Positions 4,858 through 63,580 are shown, counted from the stretch's first letter. The stretch: DNA of 64,000 nt from an uncultured Planctomycetaceae bacterium (GCA_963972485.1 CAXAWH010000007.1:7978-71977), one strand, 5' to 3'. Translations and numbers: made by a program. The notes: a model not told the origin generated them from the letters alone.

Positions 4858-5100
4858 TTTCCAGTATTGTAATCAATCCGCCTGGCAAAGGTGCAGGCAG
4901 GGATTGAGGATGAGTTTTAAAATGAATTCTAGCAATCTACCCGAGAATTCTCATCATAAATTGCAGGCTATTAGTTTGAGCCAGTCCACAGCTGCGTTTT
5001 TCGGATTGGTTGATGTGCCCAACTTCATTTTCATTTGTCAGCGACGATTTTAAAGAATTCTCGAAGTGTTTATTCCACATGATTTGCGACTGTGATGAGC

Positions 5101-57267: not shown

Positions 57268-58845
57268 ATGGCAAATAAGAATTTATTCAACACGTTAATC
57301 GGGAATTCTGGCCCAAAGGCGAACACTCGCAATGAAGCAGGTGGGTTGGCTTATCAGATGTCACCGAAGCAGTCGCTGGCCCAGTATGCAGCGACGGGTT
57401 GTTTCAATGGGACATTCTACTCCAGTGGAGCCGATCAGGTCGATGCCGTGCTCGAACTGTGCGAACAGATCGAACCAGAATTTATCGCTCGAACTGCATT
57501 GTACGCCCGCAATGAAGGTCATATGAAGGATATGCCTGCATTGTTATGTGCAGTGTTATCGGTTAAGGCACCGGGGTTGTTGATCAAGATCTTCAATCAG
57601 GTCATCGATTCACCGAAGATGCTGCGTAACTTTGTGCAGATCATGCGTTCGGGAATTGTCGGACGTAGAAGCCTGGGGACGTTACCAAAGCAGTTGATTC
57701 GCAACTGGCTGGAAGCTCGAGCGGCTGAGCAGTTGTTTGTCGGATCTATAGGAAACGATCCCTCACTCGCCGATGTGATCAAGATGGTTCACCCAAAGCC
57801 AGCAACGCCAGAGCGTTCGGCTTTGTATGCCTACCTAATTGGTCGTGAGAGCAATTGGTCAGATCTCCCCGAGTTGATTGGGCAGTATGAAAAGTTCAAG
57901 CGAAACACAAATCCAGGTAAGGTTGCCGTGCCTGATGTTCCCTTCCAGATGTTGACGGCTTTGCCATTAACGAAGAAGGACTGGGGACAGATCGCCCGAA
58001 ACGCTTCCTGGCAAATGACTCGTATGAACTTGAATACGTTTTTGCGTCACGGTGTTTTTGAGAGTGCGGAATTGACAGGAATTGTGGCAAATCGATTGCG
58101 AAATCCGCGAAAGATTGCTGCTGCCCGTGTGTTTCCGTATCAGTTAATGGCGGCTTACATGAACTCTGCGAACGAAGTGCCGCAGATCATTCTTAACGCA
58201 TTGCAGGATGCGATGGAAATCGCCATTAAGAATGTGCCTCGTGTGACTGGTAAAGTGTATGTCTTTCCGGACGTTTCGGGATCGATGCATTCTCCAGTGA
58301 CGGGACATCGTGCCGGATCGACTTCCAAGGTTCGCTGTCTGGACGTTGCAGCTCTTGTGGCGGCAGCGATTCTGCGAAAGAACCCGGAAGCCGAAGTGAT
58401 TCCATTCGAATCGAAGGCGATCACCTGTCGGTTGAATCCACGTGATAGCGTGATGACGAATGCCAGAACTCTGGCTTCGTTGCCAGCTGGTGGAACCAAC
58501 TGCAGTGCTCCTCTGGAGTACTTGAATCGTCAGAAGGCGAAGGGAGATTTGTTGATTTACGTTTCGGATAACGAATCGTGGGTCGACTCGCCTCACTACG
58601 GATGGTGCGGAGGCGGAGCAACCGCGACGATGCAGGAATGGGCTACGTTCAAGCGACGAAATCGTCAGGCCAAAATGGTCTGCATCGATATTCAGCCGTA
58701 TGCACATACGCAGGCGGTCGAACGAGCTGATATTGTTAACGTCGGTGGTTTCAGTGACCAGGTCTTCAAGTTGATTGCCAATGTCTCAAAAGGACAGGCC
58801 AGCGAGAATCACTGGGTGAATGAAATCGAACGGATGCGTTTGTAA
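57268..58845 (+). CDS. rsr: Ro60-related TROVE/vWA RNA-binding protein (Rsr)
   Basis: ATG at 57268 follows an AAGGAGGA RBS. The TROVE N-terminus matches (NEAGGLAY...L..YAATGCFNGTFY...ARTALYARNEGHMKD). C-terminal vWA with MIDAS motif FPDVSGSM. Confidence 0.85.
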   Translation: MANKNLFNTLIGNSGPKANTRNEAGGLAYQMSPKQSLAQYAATGCFNGTFYSSGADQVDAVLELCEQIEPEFIARTALYARNEGHMKDMPALLCAVLSVKAPGLLIKIFNQVIDSPKMLRNFVQIMRSGIVGRRSLGTLPKQLIRNWLEARAAEQLFVGSIGNDPSLADVIKMVHPKPATPERSALYAYLIGRESNWSDLPELIGQYEKFKRNTNPGKVAVPDVPFQMLTALPLTKKDWGQIARNASWQMTRMNLNTFLRHGVFESAELTGIVANRLRNPRKIAAARVFPYQLMAAYMNSANEVPQIILNALQDAMEIAIKNVPRVTGKVYVFPDVSGSMHSPVTGHRAGSTSKVRCLDVAALVAAAILRKNPEAEVIPFESKAITCRLNPRDSVMTNARTLASLPAGGTNCSAPLEYLNRQKAKGDLLIYVSDNESWVDSPHYGWCGGGATATMQEWATFKRRNRQAKMVCIDIQPYAHTQAVERADIVNVGGFSDQVFKLIANVSKGQASENHWVNEIERMRL

Positions 58846-58855
58846 CCAAGGAACC

Positions 58856-58884
58856 GTAACCCCCGGTGCAAGCCGGGGTGTTAC
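58856..58884 (+). other. Strong GC hairpin immediately after the rsr stop codon (terminator, processing site or RNA element)
   Basis: GTAAC-CCCCGG / CCGGGG-(T)-GTTAC gives 11 bp with one bulge and loop TGCAAG. No U-tract follows. A second small hairpin GCCCT-TTC-AGGGC lies at 58891-58903. Confidence 0.4.
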
Positions 58885-59107
58885 ATCACTGCCCTTTCAG
58901 GGCTTAGATTTGGGCCTCAAAGCTCTGTAACGCACTCCTTTGTCGTGCTTTACAACAACATCATCAACAATAATTGTTAGAATAGATGATGCACTACTCG
59001 TATTTTGTCAAAACCTTGAAGCCAGGAGTCGAATGCTTTTGGGACTACATTTTAGATAGTGTGAAATGTCTCAAAAAAACCTTGTCGACTTCTTTTCTAT
59101 GTTTCAA

Positions 59108-59216
59108 GTGTAGGTCAGGCACTGCCTGACGAATTGTGGTCACGATTCCTCTCGTCAGGCACTGCCTGACGAATTGTGGTCACGATTCCTCTCGTCAGGC
59201 ACTGCCTGACCTACAC
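59108..59216 (+). repeat. Perfect 40-nt tandem repeat (2.4 copies) carrying three 17-nt palindromes, bracketed by an extended inverted repeat
   Basis: The unit GTCAGGCACTGCCTGAC+GAATTGTGGTCACGATTCCTCTC occurs at 59114-59153 and 59154-59193. A third palindrome lies at 59194-59210. The flanks GTGTAG (59108-13) and CTACAC (59211-16) are reverse complements. Confidence 0.9.
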
Positions 59217-59235
59217 CATTATGAATATTGAACCC

Positions 59236-59330
59236 GTCAGGGAATGCCGTTGGGAGTACATGGTCTTAACCGGTTCAACTCCGGTCCGCTTTGCGGAAAC
59301 TCTCAGCAACACTTGTCCCTGGCTTTTTTT
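59236..59330 (+). ncRNA. Candidate Y-RNA-like structured RNA 1 (T-arm-like hairpin, end-to-end closing stem, U7 tail)
   Basis: Closing stem GTCAGGGA (59236-43) / TCCCTGGC (59316-23) followed by TTTTTTT. Second stem TGGGAGT (59251-57) / ACTCTCA (59299-305). T-arm-like ACCGG-TTCAACT-CCGGT, then hairpin TCCGC-TTT-GCGGA. Shares sequence blocks with RNA 2. Confidence 0.45.
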
Positions 59331-59340
59331 GATGGAGACA

Positions 59341-59520
59341 CCCACCGTCACGAATGCGGATGGAACTACAAGACTTTAGATCTCGAGGTCGTGAGTTCGA
59401 ATCTCACCGGCTCCCATCGTTTTGCAATTGCAGAACAATTTTGATGGAGCCGTAGCTCAGTCTGGTAGAGCGCGTTTACGTTTCGTCAATTCTTGTTGTG
59501 ACGGTGGGCTTTTCTATTTT
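59341..59520 (+). ncRNA. YrlA-type bacterial Y RNA candidate with circularly permuted tRNA mimic
   Basis: 11-bp closing stem CCCACCGTCAC (59341-51) / GTGACGGTGGG (59499-509), followed by a CTTTTCTATTTTT tail.
Inside, in order: variable-loop/T-arm GAGGTC-GTGAG-TTCGAAT-CTCAC (59385-407); acceptor 3' strand CGGCTCC (59408-14); capping hairpin (59419-36); acceptor 5' strand GGAGCCG (59446-52); D-arm TA-GCTC-AGTCTGGTA-GAGC (59453-71).
It lies directly downstream of rsr on the same strand. Confidence 0.7.
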
Positions 59521-59525
59521 TCGTT

Positions 59526-60479
59526 TTAACGACGCCCTTCTCTTTCCACCCACTTGTAAGCTTTTTTTGCATTCAGAGAACAGAATTTCTTTGTCGCTTC
59601 CTTCCCCTTCTCGGTGGCATACTCCATCACAATTCTTTGGAGAGTTTCATAATCGGCGGCTCTCTCTGAGACGGGCCAGTTACTCCCGTAGATGACGTGA
59701 TCATTTCCAAAAGCATTCCAGACGACATCAATATAAGGTCGATAAAATTCCAGCGACTCGGAAGGCTTATTTCCATCCCGAGCCGCTCCTTCGACCAGTG
59801 CCGATACTTTGCAATATACATTTGGATGCTTCGCGGCGGATTGAATTCCAGATTGCCAATCTGAAGGGGGAGCCTCTGTAGTGATTTTGACATTGCCAAT
59901 ATGATTCAAGACAATCCGCAGGTTTGGGACTTTTTCAGCCAGATCAGCAATCACCTGTGGTGTTTCCGGGCCACCATTCACATCGAGAGACAAGTCGAGA
60001 TCAGCCAGTAACTGAAAATCTTTCAGAGTCCCCTGCTCCAGCATCGCTTTCACCTGCTTGACGGAAACCCGGATACCACGGAAGAGGGGATTCTTTGCCA
60101 GTTCACTTACATGCTGCGCAAATTCAGGAGTCCCCGGATCCAAACGTCCAACAATACCCACGATAAAGGGATCGTCCTTGGCCAGATCGAGCAGCCAGGT
60201 GTTATCTTCCAGTCGATTGACCGCTTCAACAATGACGGTGCCCGTGACTGGTTGAAACTTCTTCAACTCTCTGAGGTGTTGAGGTAGCACCGTTCGATAA
60301 AGCGATGAATTCTCTGGCGGCCAGGGGATTCCTTCAGGTCGGGTTGGATCATAAAAATGCGTGTGGCAATCAATGATGTCGATTCCCGTCTGCTTATCTT
60401 CTGCTCTGATGAAATCAGCTGAAATGAAAAGCATTCCCGTGAAGATACAGACAATCCAGTGTCGGTGAGTTTCTTTCAT
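59526..60479 (-). CDS. Secreted amidohydrolase-2 family (TIM-barrel metal-dependent hydrolase) protein
   Basis: Signal peptide. Metal motif IIDCHTHFYD. Later NHIGN and YGSNWP blocks. Confidence 0.7.
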   Translation of the reverse strand: MKETHRHWIVCIFTGMLFISADFIRAEDKQTGIDIIDCHTHFYDPTRPEGIPWPPENSSLYRTVLPQHLRELKKFQPVTGTVIVEAVNRLEDNTWLLDLAKDDPFIVGIVGRLDPGTPEFAQHVSELAKNPLFRGIRVSVKQVKAMLEQGTLKDFQLLADLDLSLDVNGGPETPQVIADLAEKVPNLRIVLNHIGNVKITTEAPPSDWQSGIQSAAKHPNVYCKVSALVEGAARDGNKPSESLEFYRPYIDVVWNAFGNDHVIYGSNWPVSERAADYETLQRIVMEYATEKGKEATKKFCSLNAKKAYKWVEREGRR

Positions 60480-61486: not shown

Positions 61487-62092
61487 ATGTCATCTTCCTC
61501 CCGGAATGAAAATTGTACTTGGTCTGAATTGCTGGAATTTGCTCGAGCAGGTAATGATGCTGCATTCATGCAGCTGTGCGAACGATTCCGAGATTATCTG
61601 ACAACAATTGCTCAATCCGAATTAAGGCAGGAATTGCAGTCCAAAGTGGGGACCTCGGATTTGATCCAGGAATCGATGCTCGAAGCCTGGTCAGAAATGC
61701 ACTGTTTTCGCGGATCGAGCGAAGGAGAGTTTCGCCTGTGGATTGCTCGCCTTTTTCGCCACAATCTGATTGATCAAGCCAGGAAATATCGCAAAACCCA
61801 ATCGCGGAATCTCTCTCTGGAAATCAGGATTGACCAGCACCATCACCAAAACAGTCTGGAAAGCAATGAACTGAGTGGTAGCAGGATCATGCTTCTTCGG
61901 GAGAATGACGAGATGCTGCTACGAGCCGTTAATCAACTTCCTGAAAAACAGAAATCGGTGATTCTGTTGAAACATGAAAATGGATTAAGCTATGAGGAAA
62001 TTGCGGAGCAGATGAACGTAAAAGAGGCTGCGATACGTAAGATCTGGTCGCGAGCCATTCAAACCCTGCGCAGTGAGATTGGAGGAGATTAG
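61487..62092 (+). CDS. ECF-type RNA polymerase sigma-70 family factor
   Basis: Region 2 (DLIQESMLEAW...FRLWIARLFRHNLID) and region 4 HTH (LSYEEIAEQMNVKEAAIRKIWSRA). Confidence 0.85.
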   Translation: MSSSSRNENCTWSELLEFARAGNDAAFMQLCERFRDYLTTIAQSELRQELQSKVGTSDLIQESMLEAWSEMHCFRGSSEGEFRLWIARLFRHNLIDQARKYRKTQSRNLSLEIRIDQHHHQNSLESNELSGSRIMLLRENDEMLLRAVNQLPEKQKSVILLKHENGLSYEEIAEQMNVKEAAIRKIWSRAIQTLRSEIGGD

Positions 62093-62095
62093 TCG

Positions 62096-63580
62096 GTGTC
62101 AGACCAACCTCCCCTTCCCGAAGATCGTGACTCCTCACTCGACTCAGGAAAAATCCCTTCCGTCGAAGAAATTGCCACACGCCTTGACAGGCTGCTGGCA
62201 AATCCCCATGTCAATAAATCCAAAGACTTCCATCTTACGGACAAAGATTTTCAACAGCGGTATCAGATTCTGAATGAAGTCGGTCGTGGAGCATTTGGGG
62301 TTGTCTATCGAGCGCTTGATGCTCAGTTAAATCGATATGTGGCTTTGAAAATACCTCGCCCGGAAGTCATTGTCGATCGGGAAAAACTTCGTCGCTTTGA
62401 AACTGAAGCGGGCACTGCTGCTAAACTCGATCACCCTTGTATTGTCCCTGTCTACGAAGCAAATTTAAGGGCGTCTCCTCCGTTTATTGCCTCTGCATTT
62501 TGCAAGGGGCCCGATTTGGGGCATTGGCTGGAACAGCGCCAGAAGCCAGTTGATAGTACTGAAGCGGCCGAGTTTATCTCACAAATCGCAGAAGCAGTGC
62601 AGTATATTCATGACCAGGGTGTTCTGCACCGCGATCTGAAACCTGGCAATATTATGCTCGAACCAAAACAAGAAAACTCTCAAATCGAGTCACTTTCGCA
62701 GTGTGTGCCTCGTTTGACTGATTTCGGGTTGAGTAGACTCATTGAACAAAGCTTGCATTTCACGCGATCGAGTCTGATGATCGGCACTCCTCAATACATG
62801 GCTCCTGAACTGTTAGCGGTCAAATCCGAACCCTACACCAAAGCCAGTGAAGTCTATTCATTGGGTGTTTTACTCTATGAATTACTCACACTGCATCCTC
62901 CCAGTGAAGGCGGGAATTATCTCGAGGTAATTGATCGAGTGCGCTCTCAGGAACCTGTCCGTCCCAGTACCTTCAATAAGTCTATTTCATCTGATTTGGA
63001 ACTCATCTGCCTGAAGAGTCTCTCGCGGCACCCTGAAGATCGCTATGACTCTGCAGTGGAACTTCACCAGGATTTGCAGCGATTTCTTGCAGATAAGCCG
63101 ATCCACGCCAGAGCAACCTCTCAACTGGTTCATATGAGTCGGTGGAGTCGTAAAGCAGATCGTATTCGGCAGGCTGGCCTGTATGCGTTTTGTTTCCAAG
63201 GTTTGATCATTATCTGGCTATATACGCTGCTAATAATGGGCTTGTACCTTAACGAGTTCAATCGTGCAGAAACTCTTAACGCAAATGCAAATGACATAAT
63301 CATGGTCACACTCGGCTTTCACGCCCCGTTGACGGTTGGAGGATGGTTAACGATGCAAAAAAAACGCTGGTCTTTCTGGCCAACGCTAGCAGGATCCTAT
63401 GGTCTTTTGGGGGTGCTCATTTATTCCGTCGTATACCCTTCAGTTGCATTTGAATATAACTACAATAGTTTTTCGGCAAAAATGGGTGTGTTCATGGGCC
63501 TCATCATGGGCTGTGGCATTCAGTCAATTTTGTACACACTGGCAATCCCTGCCTGGAAAAAGCTTTACCGGAATGATTAA
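62096..63580 (+). CDS. Ser/Thr protein kinase with C-terminal four-TM domain
   Basis: GTG start 3 nt after the sigma-factor stop. Kinase motifs GRGAFGVVY, VALKIPR, HRDLKPGNIML, DFGLS and GTPQYMAPE. Four C-terminal hydrophobic helices. Confidence 0.88.
   Translation: MSDQPPLPEDRDSSLDSGKIPSVEEIATRLDRLLANPHVNKSKDFHLTDKDFQQRYQILNEVGRGAFGVVYRALDAQLNRYVALKIPRPEVIVDREKLRRFETEAGTAAKLDHPCIVPVYEANLRASPPFIASAFCKGPDLGHWLEQRQKPVDSTEAAEFISQIAEAVQYIHDQGVLHRDLKPGNIMLEPKQENSQIESLSQCVPRLTDFGLSRLIEQSLHFTRSSLMIGTPQYMAPELLAVKSEPYTKASEVYSLGVLLYELLTLHPPSEGGNYLEVIDRVRSQEPVRPSTFNKSISSDLELICLKSLSRHPEDRYDSAVELHQDLQRFLADKPIHARATSQLVHMSRWSRKADRIRQAGLYAFCFQGLIIIWLYTLLIMGLYLNEFNRAETLNANANDIIMVTLGFHAPLTVGGWLTMQKKRWSFWPTLAGSYGLLGVLIYSVVYPSVAFEYNYNSFSAKMGVFMGLIMGCGIQSILYTLAIPAWKKLYRND

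Follow-up and report, generated by a model that had tools for sequence, protein, structure and literature searches.

Here, we examined a 64,000-nucleotide stretch of DNA from an uncultured Planctomycetaceae bacterium (GCA_963972485.1, CAXAWH010000007.1:7978-71977; hereafter, the window, with positions counted from its first letter), in which the plus strand at 59341-59508 very probably encodes, judging from sequence and predicted structure, a bacterial Y RNA of the YrlA type. It comes last in a tandem row of three Y RNAs downstream of rsr, the gene for the Ro60 orthologue. The central part of this RNA is predicted to adopt a circularly permuted tRNA fold that lacks an anticodon loop and has all elbow nucleotides in place. 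The YrlA family is already known, and the RNA is, for a specialist, expected rather than surprising; it comes from a phylum and a metagenome-assembled genome (MAG) where the standard threshold makes no call, and it belongs to the less common subclass that combines a tRNA-type 7-bp acceptor with a connector. The YrlA-type identity, proposed in an initial annotation made from the sequence alone, is borne out by the Rfam match, the linkage to rsr, the order T arm, acceptor, D arm, the CGAAUGC/CUUGU and YUAY motifs, the G15:C48 pair and covariation. That annotation described the YrlA by itself and missed its place in a tandem array.

The two halves of the tRNA stand in swapped order, as first described: variable loop, T arm and acceptor 3′ strand (GAGGTC-GTGAG-TTCGAAT-CTCAC-CGGCTCC, 59385-59414) precede the 5′ half (59446-59471), in which the D arm, in DNA form GCTC-AGTCTGGTA-GAGC, occupies 59455-71. 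The acceptor strands GGAGCCG and CGGCTCC are, as claimed, exact Watson-Crick complements, and the 31-nt connector between them contains the 7-bp hairpin that had been pointed out (GTTTTGC-AATT-GCAGAAC, 59419-59436, with one G.U pair). A linear cloverleaf with an anticodon arm is absent, the anticodon position leading instead into the helices P2 and P1. The 11-bp closing stem of the initial annotation (P1) exists, with its 3′ strand GTGACGGTGGG shifted by one position, to 59498-59508 rather than 59499-59509, and the stem lengthens to 13 bp with a G.U and an A-U pair (59341-59353 with 59496-59508). Similarly, the 6-bp candidate for the inner helix (59361-66 with 59480-85) turned out to be part of an 8-bp helix, P2 (59359-59366 with 59480-59487), in the minimum free energy (MFE) fold, the first seven pairs of which are also placed by the Rfam alignment.

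The sequence motifs of the family occupy the expected parts of this structure. The P1 5′ strand overlaps a CGAAUGC motif (59351-59357), and the internal loop between P1 and P2 holds the family-invariant GAAUGC and CUUGU motifs, CUUGU(C/U)G being nearly invariant across the family alignment. CUAC (59366-69), a YUAY motif that follows the P2 5′ strand, opens the V region, upstream of the T arm, acceptor and D arm in that order. Within the V region, pairs 42:28 (C59384-G59474) and 43:27 (G59385-C59473) can form, and the corresponding alignment columns 43/44 and 107/106 covary; the variable loop AGGUC (59386-59390) ends in C48 (59390). The set of tRNA tertiary nucleotides is complete, comprising U8, A14, the Levitt pair G15 (59460):C48, G18 G19, U54 U55 C56, A58 and G53:C61. 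Folding of 59335-59525, the segment that the initial annotation had singled out for this purpose, yields an MFE of −71.9 kcal/mol versus −50.3 kcal/mol for dinucleotide shuffles (z −5.6; none of 200 shuffles as good) and recovers the closing stem, P2, the T arm, the acceptor, the connector hairpin and the D arm.

The covariance-model search that had been recommended provides an independent test, since the seed of our own model was pairing-filtered. In E-value mode, the Rfam family YrlA (RF02553) aligns over its full length (model positions 1-114 of 114) with 59347-59505 on the plus strand (67.2 bits, E = 8.9e-15). At gathering thresholds, Rfam reports no match in the whole window, so that calling the element unannotated was fair, and, as predicted, linear tRNA scanning misses it: ARAGORN finds 0 tRNA and 0 tmRNA genes across the 64 kb. 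Three small open reading frames that overlap the element (59176-59379, 59244-59444 and 59498-59695) were rejected, none having a Pfam match, and a blastn comparison with 50,697 phage records returned no match to the RNA.

Comparison with other rsr loci places the RNA in a large family. A protein-guided scan assembled 80 rsr loci from Planctomycetota, Acidobacteriota, Verrucomicrobiota, Myxococcota and other groups, including that of Planctomycetaceae bacterium UBA2671 (L001), whose Rsr is 94% identical to the one in the window. A motif scan for T arm, 7-nt strand, connector, complementary 7-nt strand, U8-A9 and D arm detected the permuted architecture in 66 of 81 sources, with GAAUGC...ACUAC preceding and GUUUC...CUUGUCG following nearly all instances. 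We then used a covariance model (R1) built from 35 homologues, with the window sequence in the seed and L001 outside it; GAAA took the place of every cap, the only engineered part of the seed, and the natural sequences were subsequently aligned by the model. At E <= 0.01, R1 produced 235 matches, spread over the window and 76 of the 80 loci, all but one on the rsr strand (234/235) and nearly all downstream of rsr, with two or more matches, up to about seven, at most loci. L001, although outside the seed, scores 101.9 bits, compared with 101.4 bits for the window. Planctomycetota, Acidobacteriota, Verrucomicrobiota and Myxococcota thus commonly have arrays of two or more (to about seven) Y RNAs following rsr.

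The predicted helices are maintained by compensatory change. Among the 150 best natural matches, 95.8% of pair cells are standard, versus 70.4% after shuffling and 36-58% when the partners are slid; 32 of the 35 pairs are altered on both sides, and the covariation score is 0.64 versus 0.18, a value that 0 of 500 shuffles reached. The pairing-filtered homologue set gives similar figures (95.7% of cells paired, 29 of 35 pairs altered on both sides). In P1, homologues have changes on both sides of each of the nine modelled pairs; family-wide covariation extends to all 7 pairs of the acceptor; and P2, which was not used in homologue selection, covaries as well (helices 2-3). The T-stem pair 52:62 is A-U in the window lineage versus G-C in nearly all relatives (columns 74/173 of the family alignment: GC 140, AU 10), a compensatory double change. 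The Levitt pair 15:48 is G:C in 71 and A:U in 27 of 101 homologues; a covarying Levitt pair in YrlA was also found by Chen et al. (PMC4201824). The comparison of rsr-downstream regions that the initial annotation had advised thus reveals permuted halves that recur beside rsr with compensatory changes in their stems.

Several observations weigh against the YrlA assignment. The score of the window RNA is 1.8 bits short of the RF02553 gathering score of 69, and pipelines therefore do not call it; this score is an annotation threshold rather than a biological feature, and the shortfall arises because of a 32-nt insertion at the acceptor cap and the 14-nt insertion in the V region. Indeed, in the 19 closest loci (L001-L019), the gathering score sits atop the true scores: 11 YrlAs pass, with 69.8-74.9 bits, and many clear members, those of L001 and the window included, lie just below, so that the Rfam threshold loses many genuine members, namely, those with connectors or V insertions. 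The GNCGAAN0-1G site, CACGAAUG (59349-59356), keeps the CGAAUG core and has C rather than G as its first base, a variant shared with L002, L004, L005, L006, L015 and L023; AAUGC is invariant in the seed alignment. Finally, the homologues and seed were chosen by pairing filters (T, acceptor, D, P1), so that their pairedness is partly by construction, and the 150-sequence alignment was fitted to the R1 model.

Other explanations for the element fare far worse. It could be a functionless pair of decayed tRNA gene fragments, or two adjacent tRNA pseudogenes with the 3′ half preceding the 5′ half, and true tRNA arrays do exist at some rsr loci (L020, L041, L050, L057 and L058); the Rfam tRNA model can, moreover, bridge adjacent YrlAs. 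However, the two halves have perfectly complementary acceptor strands and are enclosed by P1/P2 together with Y-RNA motifs, ARAGORN finds no anticodon arm anywhere, and the same architecture stands beside rsr in 66 sources with compensatory changes; furthermore, the element is near-invariant relative to L001, while the sequence after the rsr stop and after the YrlA diverges. The enclosing module, the complementary acceptors and the covariation effectively refute decay, which we regard as extremely unlikely. A two-piece (circularly permuted) transfer-messenger RNA (tmRNA) gene would have the same order of T arm, acceptor 3′ strand, intervening segment and acceptor 5′ strand, and Rfam tmRNA_permuted matches 59391-59454 weakly. 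Yet the 17.8 bits of this match are far under the gathering score of 47, ARAGORN, which detects permuted tmRNAs, finds none, and the RNA has a complete D arm but neither pseudoknots nor a tag reading frame; with an A-U pair at 3:70 and C at position 73, it lacks the alanine identity that tmRNA requires, and the Y-RNA motifs and the rsr linkage point elsewhere. This explanation is refuted at the level of sequence, and its probability is close to nil.

Somewhat less remote, albeit still highly improbable, is a cis-acting structure in the rsr 3′ untranslated region, a stabiliser or terminator rather than a component of a trans-acting ribonucleoprotein. All three elements downstream of rsr end in a stem followed by a U-rich run, and no separate promoter was detected. 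Against this stand the homology to RNAs that Rsr binds as discrete molecules, the full set of tRNA tertiary interactions, and the presence of two or more (up to about seven) units per locus, which would be needless for termination.

True tRNA genes are absent downstream of rsr in most planctomycete loci. Where present, they can be interleaved with Y RNAs in one same-strand array, as at L041:4735-5884 (YrlA, tRNA-Pro, tRNA-Met, short Y, tRNA-Leu, tRNA-His, YrlA, tRNA-Gln, YrlA, tRNA-Arg) and also at L020, L050, L057, L058 and L064, which suggests shared transcription and processing. At three other loci (L005:5058-5229, L010:5242-5385 and L014:5173-5325), the Rfam tRNA model passes its gathering threshold on apparent split tRNAs; these calls are false because the D-arm half of one YrlA is joined to the T-arm half of the next, with which it shares acceptor sequence. 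In addition, one planctomycete MAG has two Acido-Lenti-1 RNA (RF01687) matches above gathering between rsr and the Y RNAs (L011:5011-5056 on the plus strand and 4861-4906 on the minus strand).

Two YrlA architectures coexist at these rsr loci. Class A is the classic YrlA, in which an acceptor-like stem of free sequence is capped by a loop of 2-8 nt; in class B, a 7-bp acceptor is followed by a long connector of 13-69 nt that usually has its own hairpin (z about −2 to −5.7 relative to shuffles). The window RNA belongs to class B, with a hairpin z of about −3 (−2.9 and −3.2) and an MFE of −7.9 versus −3.3 for the connector alone; the single difference from L001 in the connector, G-C to G.U, preserves pairing. 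This hairpin had been flagged as terminator-like, but we do not read it so, given that the connector hairpins of relatives are without U tracts. Our comparison set thus includes a sizeable YrlA subclass with a pre-tRNA-like acceptor end.

RNase P may cut the window RNA between 59445 and 59446, an event to which we assign about an even chance by analogy with the YrlA of Mycobacterium smegmatis. Opening at this site is plausible because of the 7-bp acceptor, the U at −1 relative to G1 and the unpaired nucleotide at position 73, which stand where a tight loop would otherwise cap the helix; the acceptor has the 7 bp of the M. smegmatis type, here all Watson-Crick pairs and stacked on the 5-bp T stem. 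For M. smegmatis YrlA, the 7-bp acceptor has been named as the reason for RNase P cleavage in vitro and in vivo, which is followed by CCA addition (PMC4201824). Speaking against cleavage, CCA is not encoded in the window RNA (CGGCUCC-CAUC), two of the three species that Chen et al. examined showed no cleavage (PMC4201824), and AUC (59416-18) can pair with GAU (59443-45) in the connector, the MFE fold stacking these pairs on the acceptor across a bulged C73, whereby the RNase P site may come to lie inside a helix.

The alternative is a closed, unprocessed YrlA, a single molecule in which the connector and its hairpin stay in place as a long acceptor cap, an arrangement shared with most YrlAs and with cyanobacterial ones that have long acceptors; we take this to be a serious possibility that falls slightly short of an even chance. 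According to the published view, most YrlAs probably are closed permuted tRNA mimics and poor RNase P substrates, and, consistent with a closed form, the MFE fold stacks the AUC/GAU pairs together with the 7-bp hairpin onto the acceptor, and connector hairpins are conserved among relatives, suggesting that the connector is retained for a reason. Conversely, neither the sequence nor the length of the connector (13-69 nt) is conserved, the M. smegmatis YrlA with its 7-bp stem is cleaved in vivo, and the 7-bp acceptor, the unpaired discriminator position and the pyrimidine at −1, found before G1 in 29 of 31 RNAs with GG.GC/GC.CC acceptors, resemble a pre-tRNA processing site.

The acceptor ends of relatives provide a further lead, being not only pre-tRNA-like but, in many cases, of the alanine type. 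A G3.U70 wobble pair occurs in 34 of 101 permuted YrlAs, compared with at most 13 G.U pairs at any other acceptor position. These 34 RNAs have A73 (30), G1-C72 (32), G2-C71 (31), G4-C69 (28) and C5-G68 (34), and pair 6:67 covaries among them (C-G 22, U-A 5, G-C 5); in the 31 RNAs of the GG.GC/GC.CC type, pair 3:70 is G.U in 26, A-U in 5 and G-C in none. The acceptor set G1-C72, G2-C71, G3.U70, G4-C69, C5-G68 and A73 is complete in 26-34 related YrlAs. Alanine-type acceptors (GGGGC../..GCUCC) with long connectors are found at loci L002-L019, L021-L023, L039, L046, L058, L062, L065, L073 and L079 (for example, L007:4813-4959 and L003:4867-5064), spanning three phyla (Planctomycetota, Blastocatellia and Myxococcota). 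G3:U70 with A73 constitutes the acceptor identity of tRNA-Ala and tmRNA, and the likeness drawn here rests on such textbook identity rules; its role in bacterial tRNA-Ala is said to go back to the work of Hou and Schimmel and of McClain and Foss, both in 1988.

The window and L001 have A3:U70 and C73 and so lack alanine identity, although the window RNA shares G1-C72, G2-C71, G4-C69, C5-G68 and U70 with the full-set relatives; from these sequences, the A3:U70/C73 combination appears to be a derived loss of the alanine set. It is conceivable, although we consider it rather unlikely, that these RNAs form a distinct YrlA subclass built as a permuted pre-tRNA, in which RNase P and a 3′ processing enzyme would open the molecule before CCA tailing and, in the relatives, charging with alanine, the window/UBA2671 lineage representing a natural loss-of-identity variant. 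We found no mention of alanine identity in YrlA in the literature searched, to which neither the 2018 review by Sim and Wolin nor the supplementary tables published with Chen et al. (2014) belonged. Aminoacylation was raised by Chen et al. only for M. smegmatis YrlA (PMC4201824). If the conjecture is true, the Y RNAs of the relatives would be aminoacylated, Ro60-bound tRNA mimics, and matched pairs of YrlAs with and without the alanine identity pair would be natural test cases for Y RNA aminoacylation and for the role of the tRNA-like module.

By analogy with D. radiodurans Yrn1, S. Typhimurium YrlA and M. smegmatis YrlA (PMC4201824; bioRxiv 10.1101/312249), a mechanism can be proposed. The Y RNA would be made from the rsr transcript or its read-through and trimmed to the stem, its ends pairing into the two stacked helices P1 and P2; the P1/P2 module with the GAAUGC/CUUGU loop would bind the Rsr ring, and the tRNA-like module would serve as a stable handle that tethers Rsr to, or gates it with, a partner. 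In D. radiodurans and Salmonella, this partner is PNPase (PMC4201824; bioRxiv 10.1101/312249). With chances that we judge roughly balanced, RNase P would cut at 59445/59446, followed by trimming of the 31-nt connector and CCA addition; the processed product would then consist of two pieces joined through the helices of the Y RNA, a form demonstrated for M. smegmatis YrlA. So far, RNase P cleavage and CCA tailing of a Y RNA are evidenced only in that species, and the sequences assembled here offer many natural test cases.

Features of the rsr locus and of the YrlA element in the window (positions from the first letter of the window)
Feature	Position	Strand	Basis or remark
rsr, Ro60 orthologue, 541 aa	57220-58845	+	Pfam vWA_Ro60 2.7e-16, TROVE 3.2e-9
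Y RNA 1, YrlB-like	59024-59093	+	Rsr-binding-type module GUCGAAUGC ... CUUGUCGAC, simple hairpin cap, without tRNA-like domain
Y RNA 2	59235-59324	+	Rsr-binding-type module, T arm CCGG-UUCAACU-CCGG, 4-bp hairpin CCGC-UUU-GCGG, without D arm
Y RNA 3, complete YrlA	59346-59503 (unfiltered); 59345-59504 (filtered)	+	R1 89.6 bits unfiltered, 101.4 bits filtered
P1 5′ strand CCCACCGUCACGA	59341-59353	+	pairs with 59496-59508, 13 bp in MFE fold
P2 5′ strand GAUGGAAC	59359-59366	+	8 bp with 59480-59487 in MFE fold; covaries
V region	59368-59390	+	Rfam alignment; 14-nt insertion 59368-59381 relative to Rfam
T arm GUGAG-UUCGAAU-CUCAC	59391-59407	+	sequence, Rfam alignment, MFE fold
Acceptor 3′ strand CGGCUCC (66-72) and discriminator-position C59415	59408-59415	+	exact complement of 59446-59452
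Connector, 31 nt counting C59415	59415-59445	+	hairpin 59419-25/59430-36
Acceptor 5′ strand GGAGCCG, U8 A9, D arm GCUC-AGUCUGGUA-GAGC	59446-59471	+	sequence, Rfam alignment, MFE fold
P2 3′ strand (59480-59487) and P1 3′ strand (59496-59508), flanking conserved loop AAUUCUUG	59480-59508	+	fold, Rfam, covariation
U-rich tail CUUUUCUAUUUUU	59509-59521	+	3′ of P1

With default filters, R1 matches only three sites in the 64-kb window, namely, the three Y RNAs, each of which has a terminal stem followed by a U-rich run; the unfiltered scores were obtained at every position of 58800-59600. Y RNA 1 aligns with R1 (45.0 bits, E = 1.5e-10) over model positions 1-128 with the tRNA core deleted and has an MFE z of −3.05; its match to Rfam YrlB (26.2 bits, E = 0.016) is far under the gathering score of 97. 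Y RNA 2 (R1 45.5 bits, E = 1e-10; MFE −35.7, z −2.7) has a U7 run on its 3′ side; besides that of the YrlA, a T-arm-like motif is visible near 59270, within Y RNA 2. Relative to L001, all three have hardly changed: Y RNA 1 is kept save for its apical loop, 59236-59324 matches at all but two positions, and the three changes in the V region of the YrlA all sit inside its 14-nt insertion, whereas divergence or indels mark the stretch just downstream of the rsr stop, the region past the YrlA 3′ end and that apical loop. This uncultured planctomycete thereby gains a correct non-coding annotation, that of three Y RNAs arrayed in linkage to rsr.

Between Y RNAs 1 and 2, at 59114-59210, lies a perfect 40-nt tandem repeat in 2.4 copies, which folds at −71.6 kcal/mol (z −10.5). 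Each unit holds the near-palindrome GTCAGGCACTGCCTGAC, which occurs nowhere else in the window and, among the loci, only in L001, with one copy fewer there.

The YrlA begins 496 nt past the end of rsr at 58845 on the same strand, close to the approximately 500 nt estimated at the outset and well within the 4-kb limit for linkage of a YrlA to a Ro60/TROVE gene. A domain scan of the flanks identified a GH63-like hydrolase upstream of rsr and, downstream, a convergent amidohydrolase, an ECF sigma factor and a Ser/Thr kinase. The latter two genes, an ECF sigma factor gene of the PF07638 type and the Ser/Thr protein kinase gene immediately next to it, occupy 61487-63580, and such a pairing is typical of planctomycetes. 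Directly 3′ of the rsr stop, a G+C-rich hairpin, GUAACCCCCGG...CCGGGGUGUUAC (58855-58903), is partly kept in L001, and a terminator-like stem comes after it at 58891-58903.

In gene organization, the window YrlA resembles two-piece tmRNA genes and the permuted tRNA genes of Cyanidioschyzon merolae, in which the 3′ half likewise precedes the 5′ half and the two are separated, at the acceptor end, by an intervening segment; unlike these, it has no tag-coding piece or anticodon arm, the latter being replaced by the Ro-binding stem. We know of no circularisation pathway for permuted tRNAs in bacteria. YrlA RNAs beside rsr have been described in more than 250 species, and the idea of circularly permuted tRNA mimicry was put forward together with them (PMC4201824). 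As in RF02553 and the S. Typhimurium YrlA (PMC4201824; structure in Wang et al. 2018, bioRxiv 10.1101/312249), the window RNA lies beside rsr on the same strand, has the CGAAUGC motif on its 5′ side, the order V region, T arm, acceptor-like stem and D arm, the tRNA tertiary nucleotides, and ends paired into a Ro-binding stem. However, the Salmonella RNA has a 6-bp acceptor-like stem with a small loop, as opposed to 7 bp, a 31-nt connector with a hairpin and a 14-nt V insertion, and belongs to an rsr-yrlBA-rtcBA operon under RtcR, whereas no rtcB, rtcA or rtcR was found among the flanking genes scanned around the window rsr. With D. radiodurans Yrn1, an Rsr-bound RNA that tethers Rsr to PNPase, the window RNA shares a tRNA-like end containing a T arm; in Yrn1, by contrast, the tRNA-like parts are oriented differently, without a clear D arm, and Chen et al. 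assign it to a separate lineage. The M. smegmatis YrlA, the only one for which RNase P cleavage (in vitro and in vivo) and CCA addition have been shown (PMC4201824), is similar by its published description in having a 7-bp tRNA-like acceptor, but is encoded upstream of rsr rather than downstream, and comparable processing of the window RNA would follow by analogy only. M. smegmatis also has a second Y RNA, the T-arm-bearing YrlB, and both are made from one precursor (PMC4201824). The layout of several Y RNAs in the window mirrors those of Salmonella (yrlB, yrlA) and M. smegmatis (YrlA plus the T-arm-bearing YrlB).

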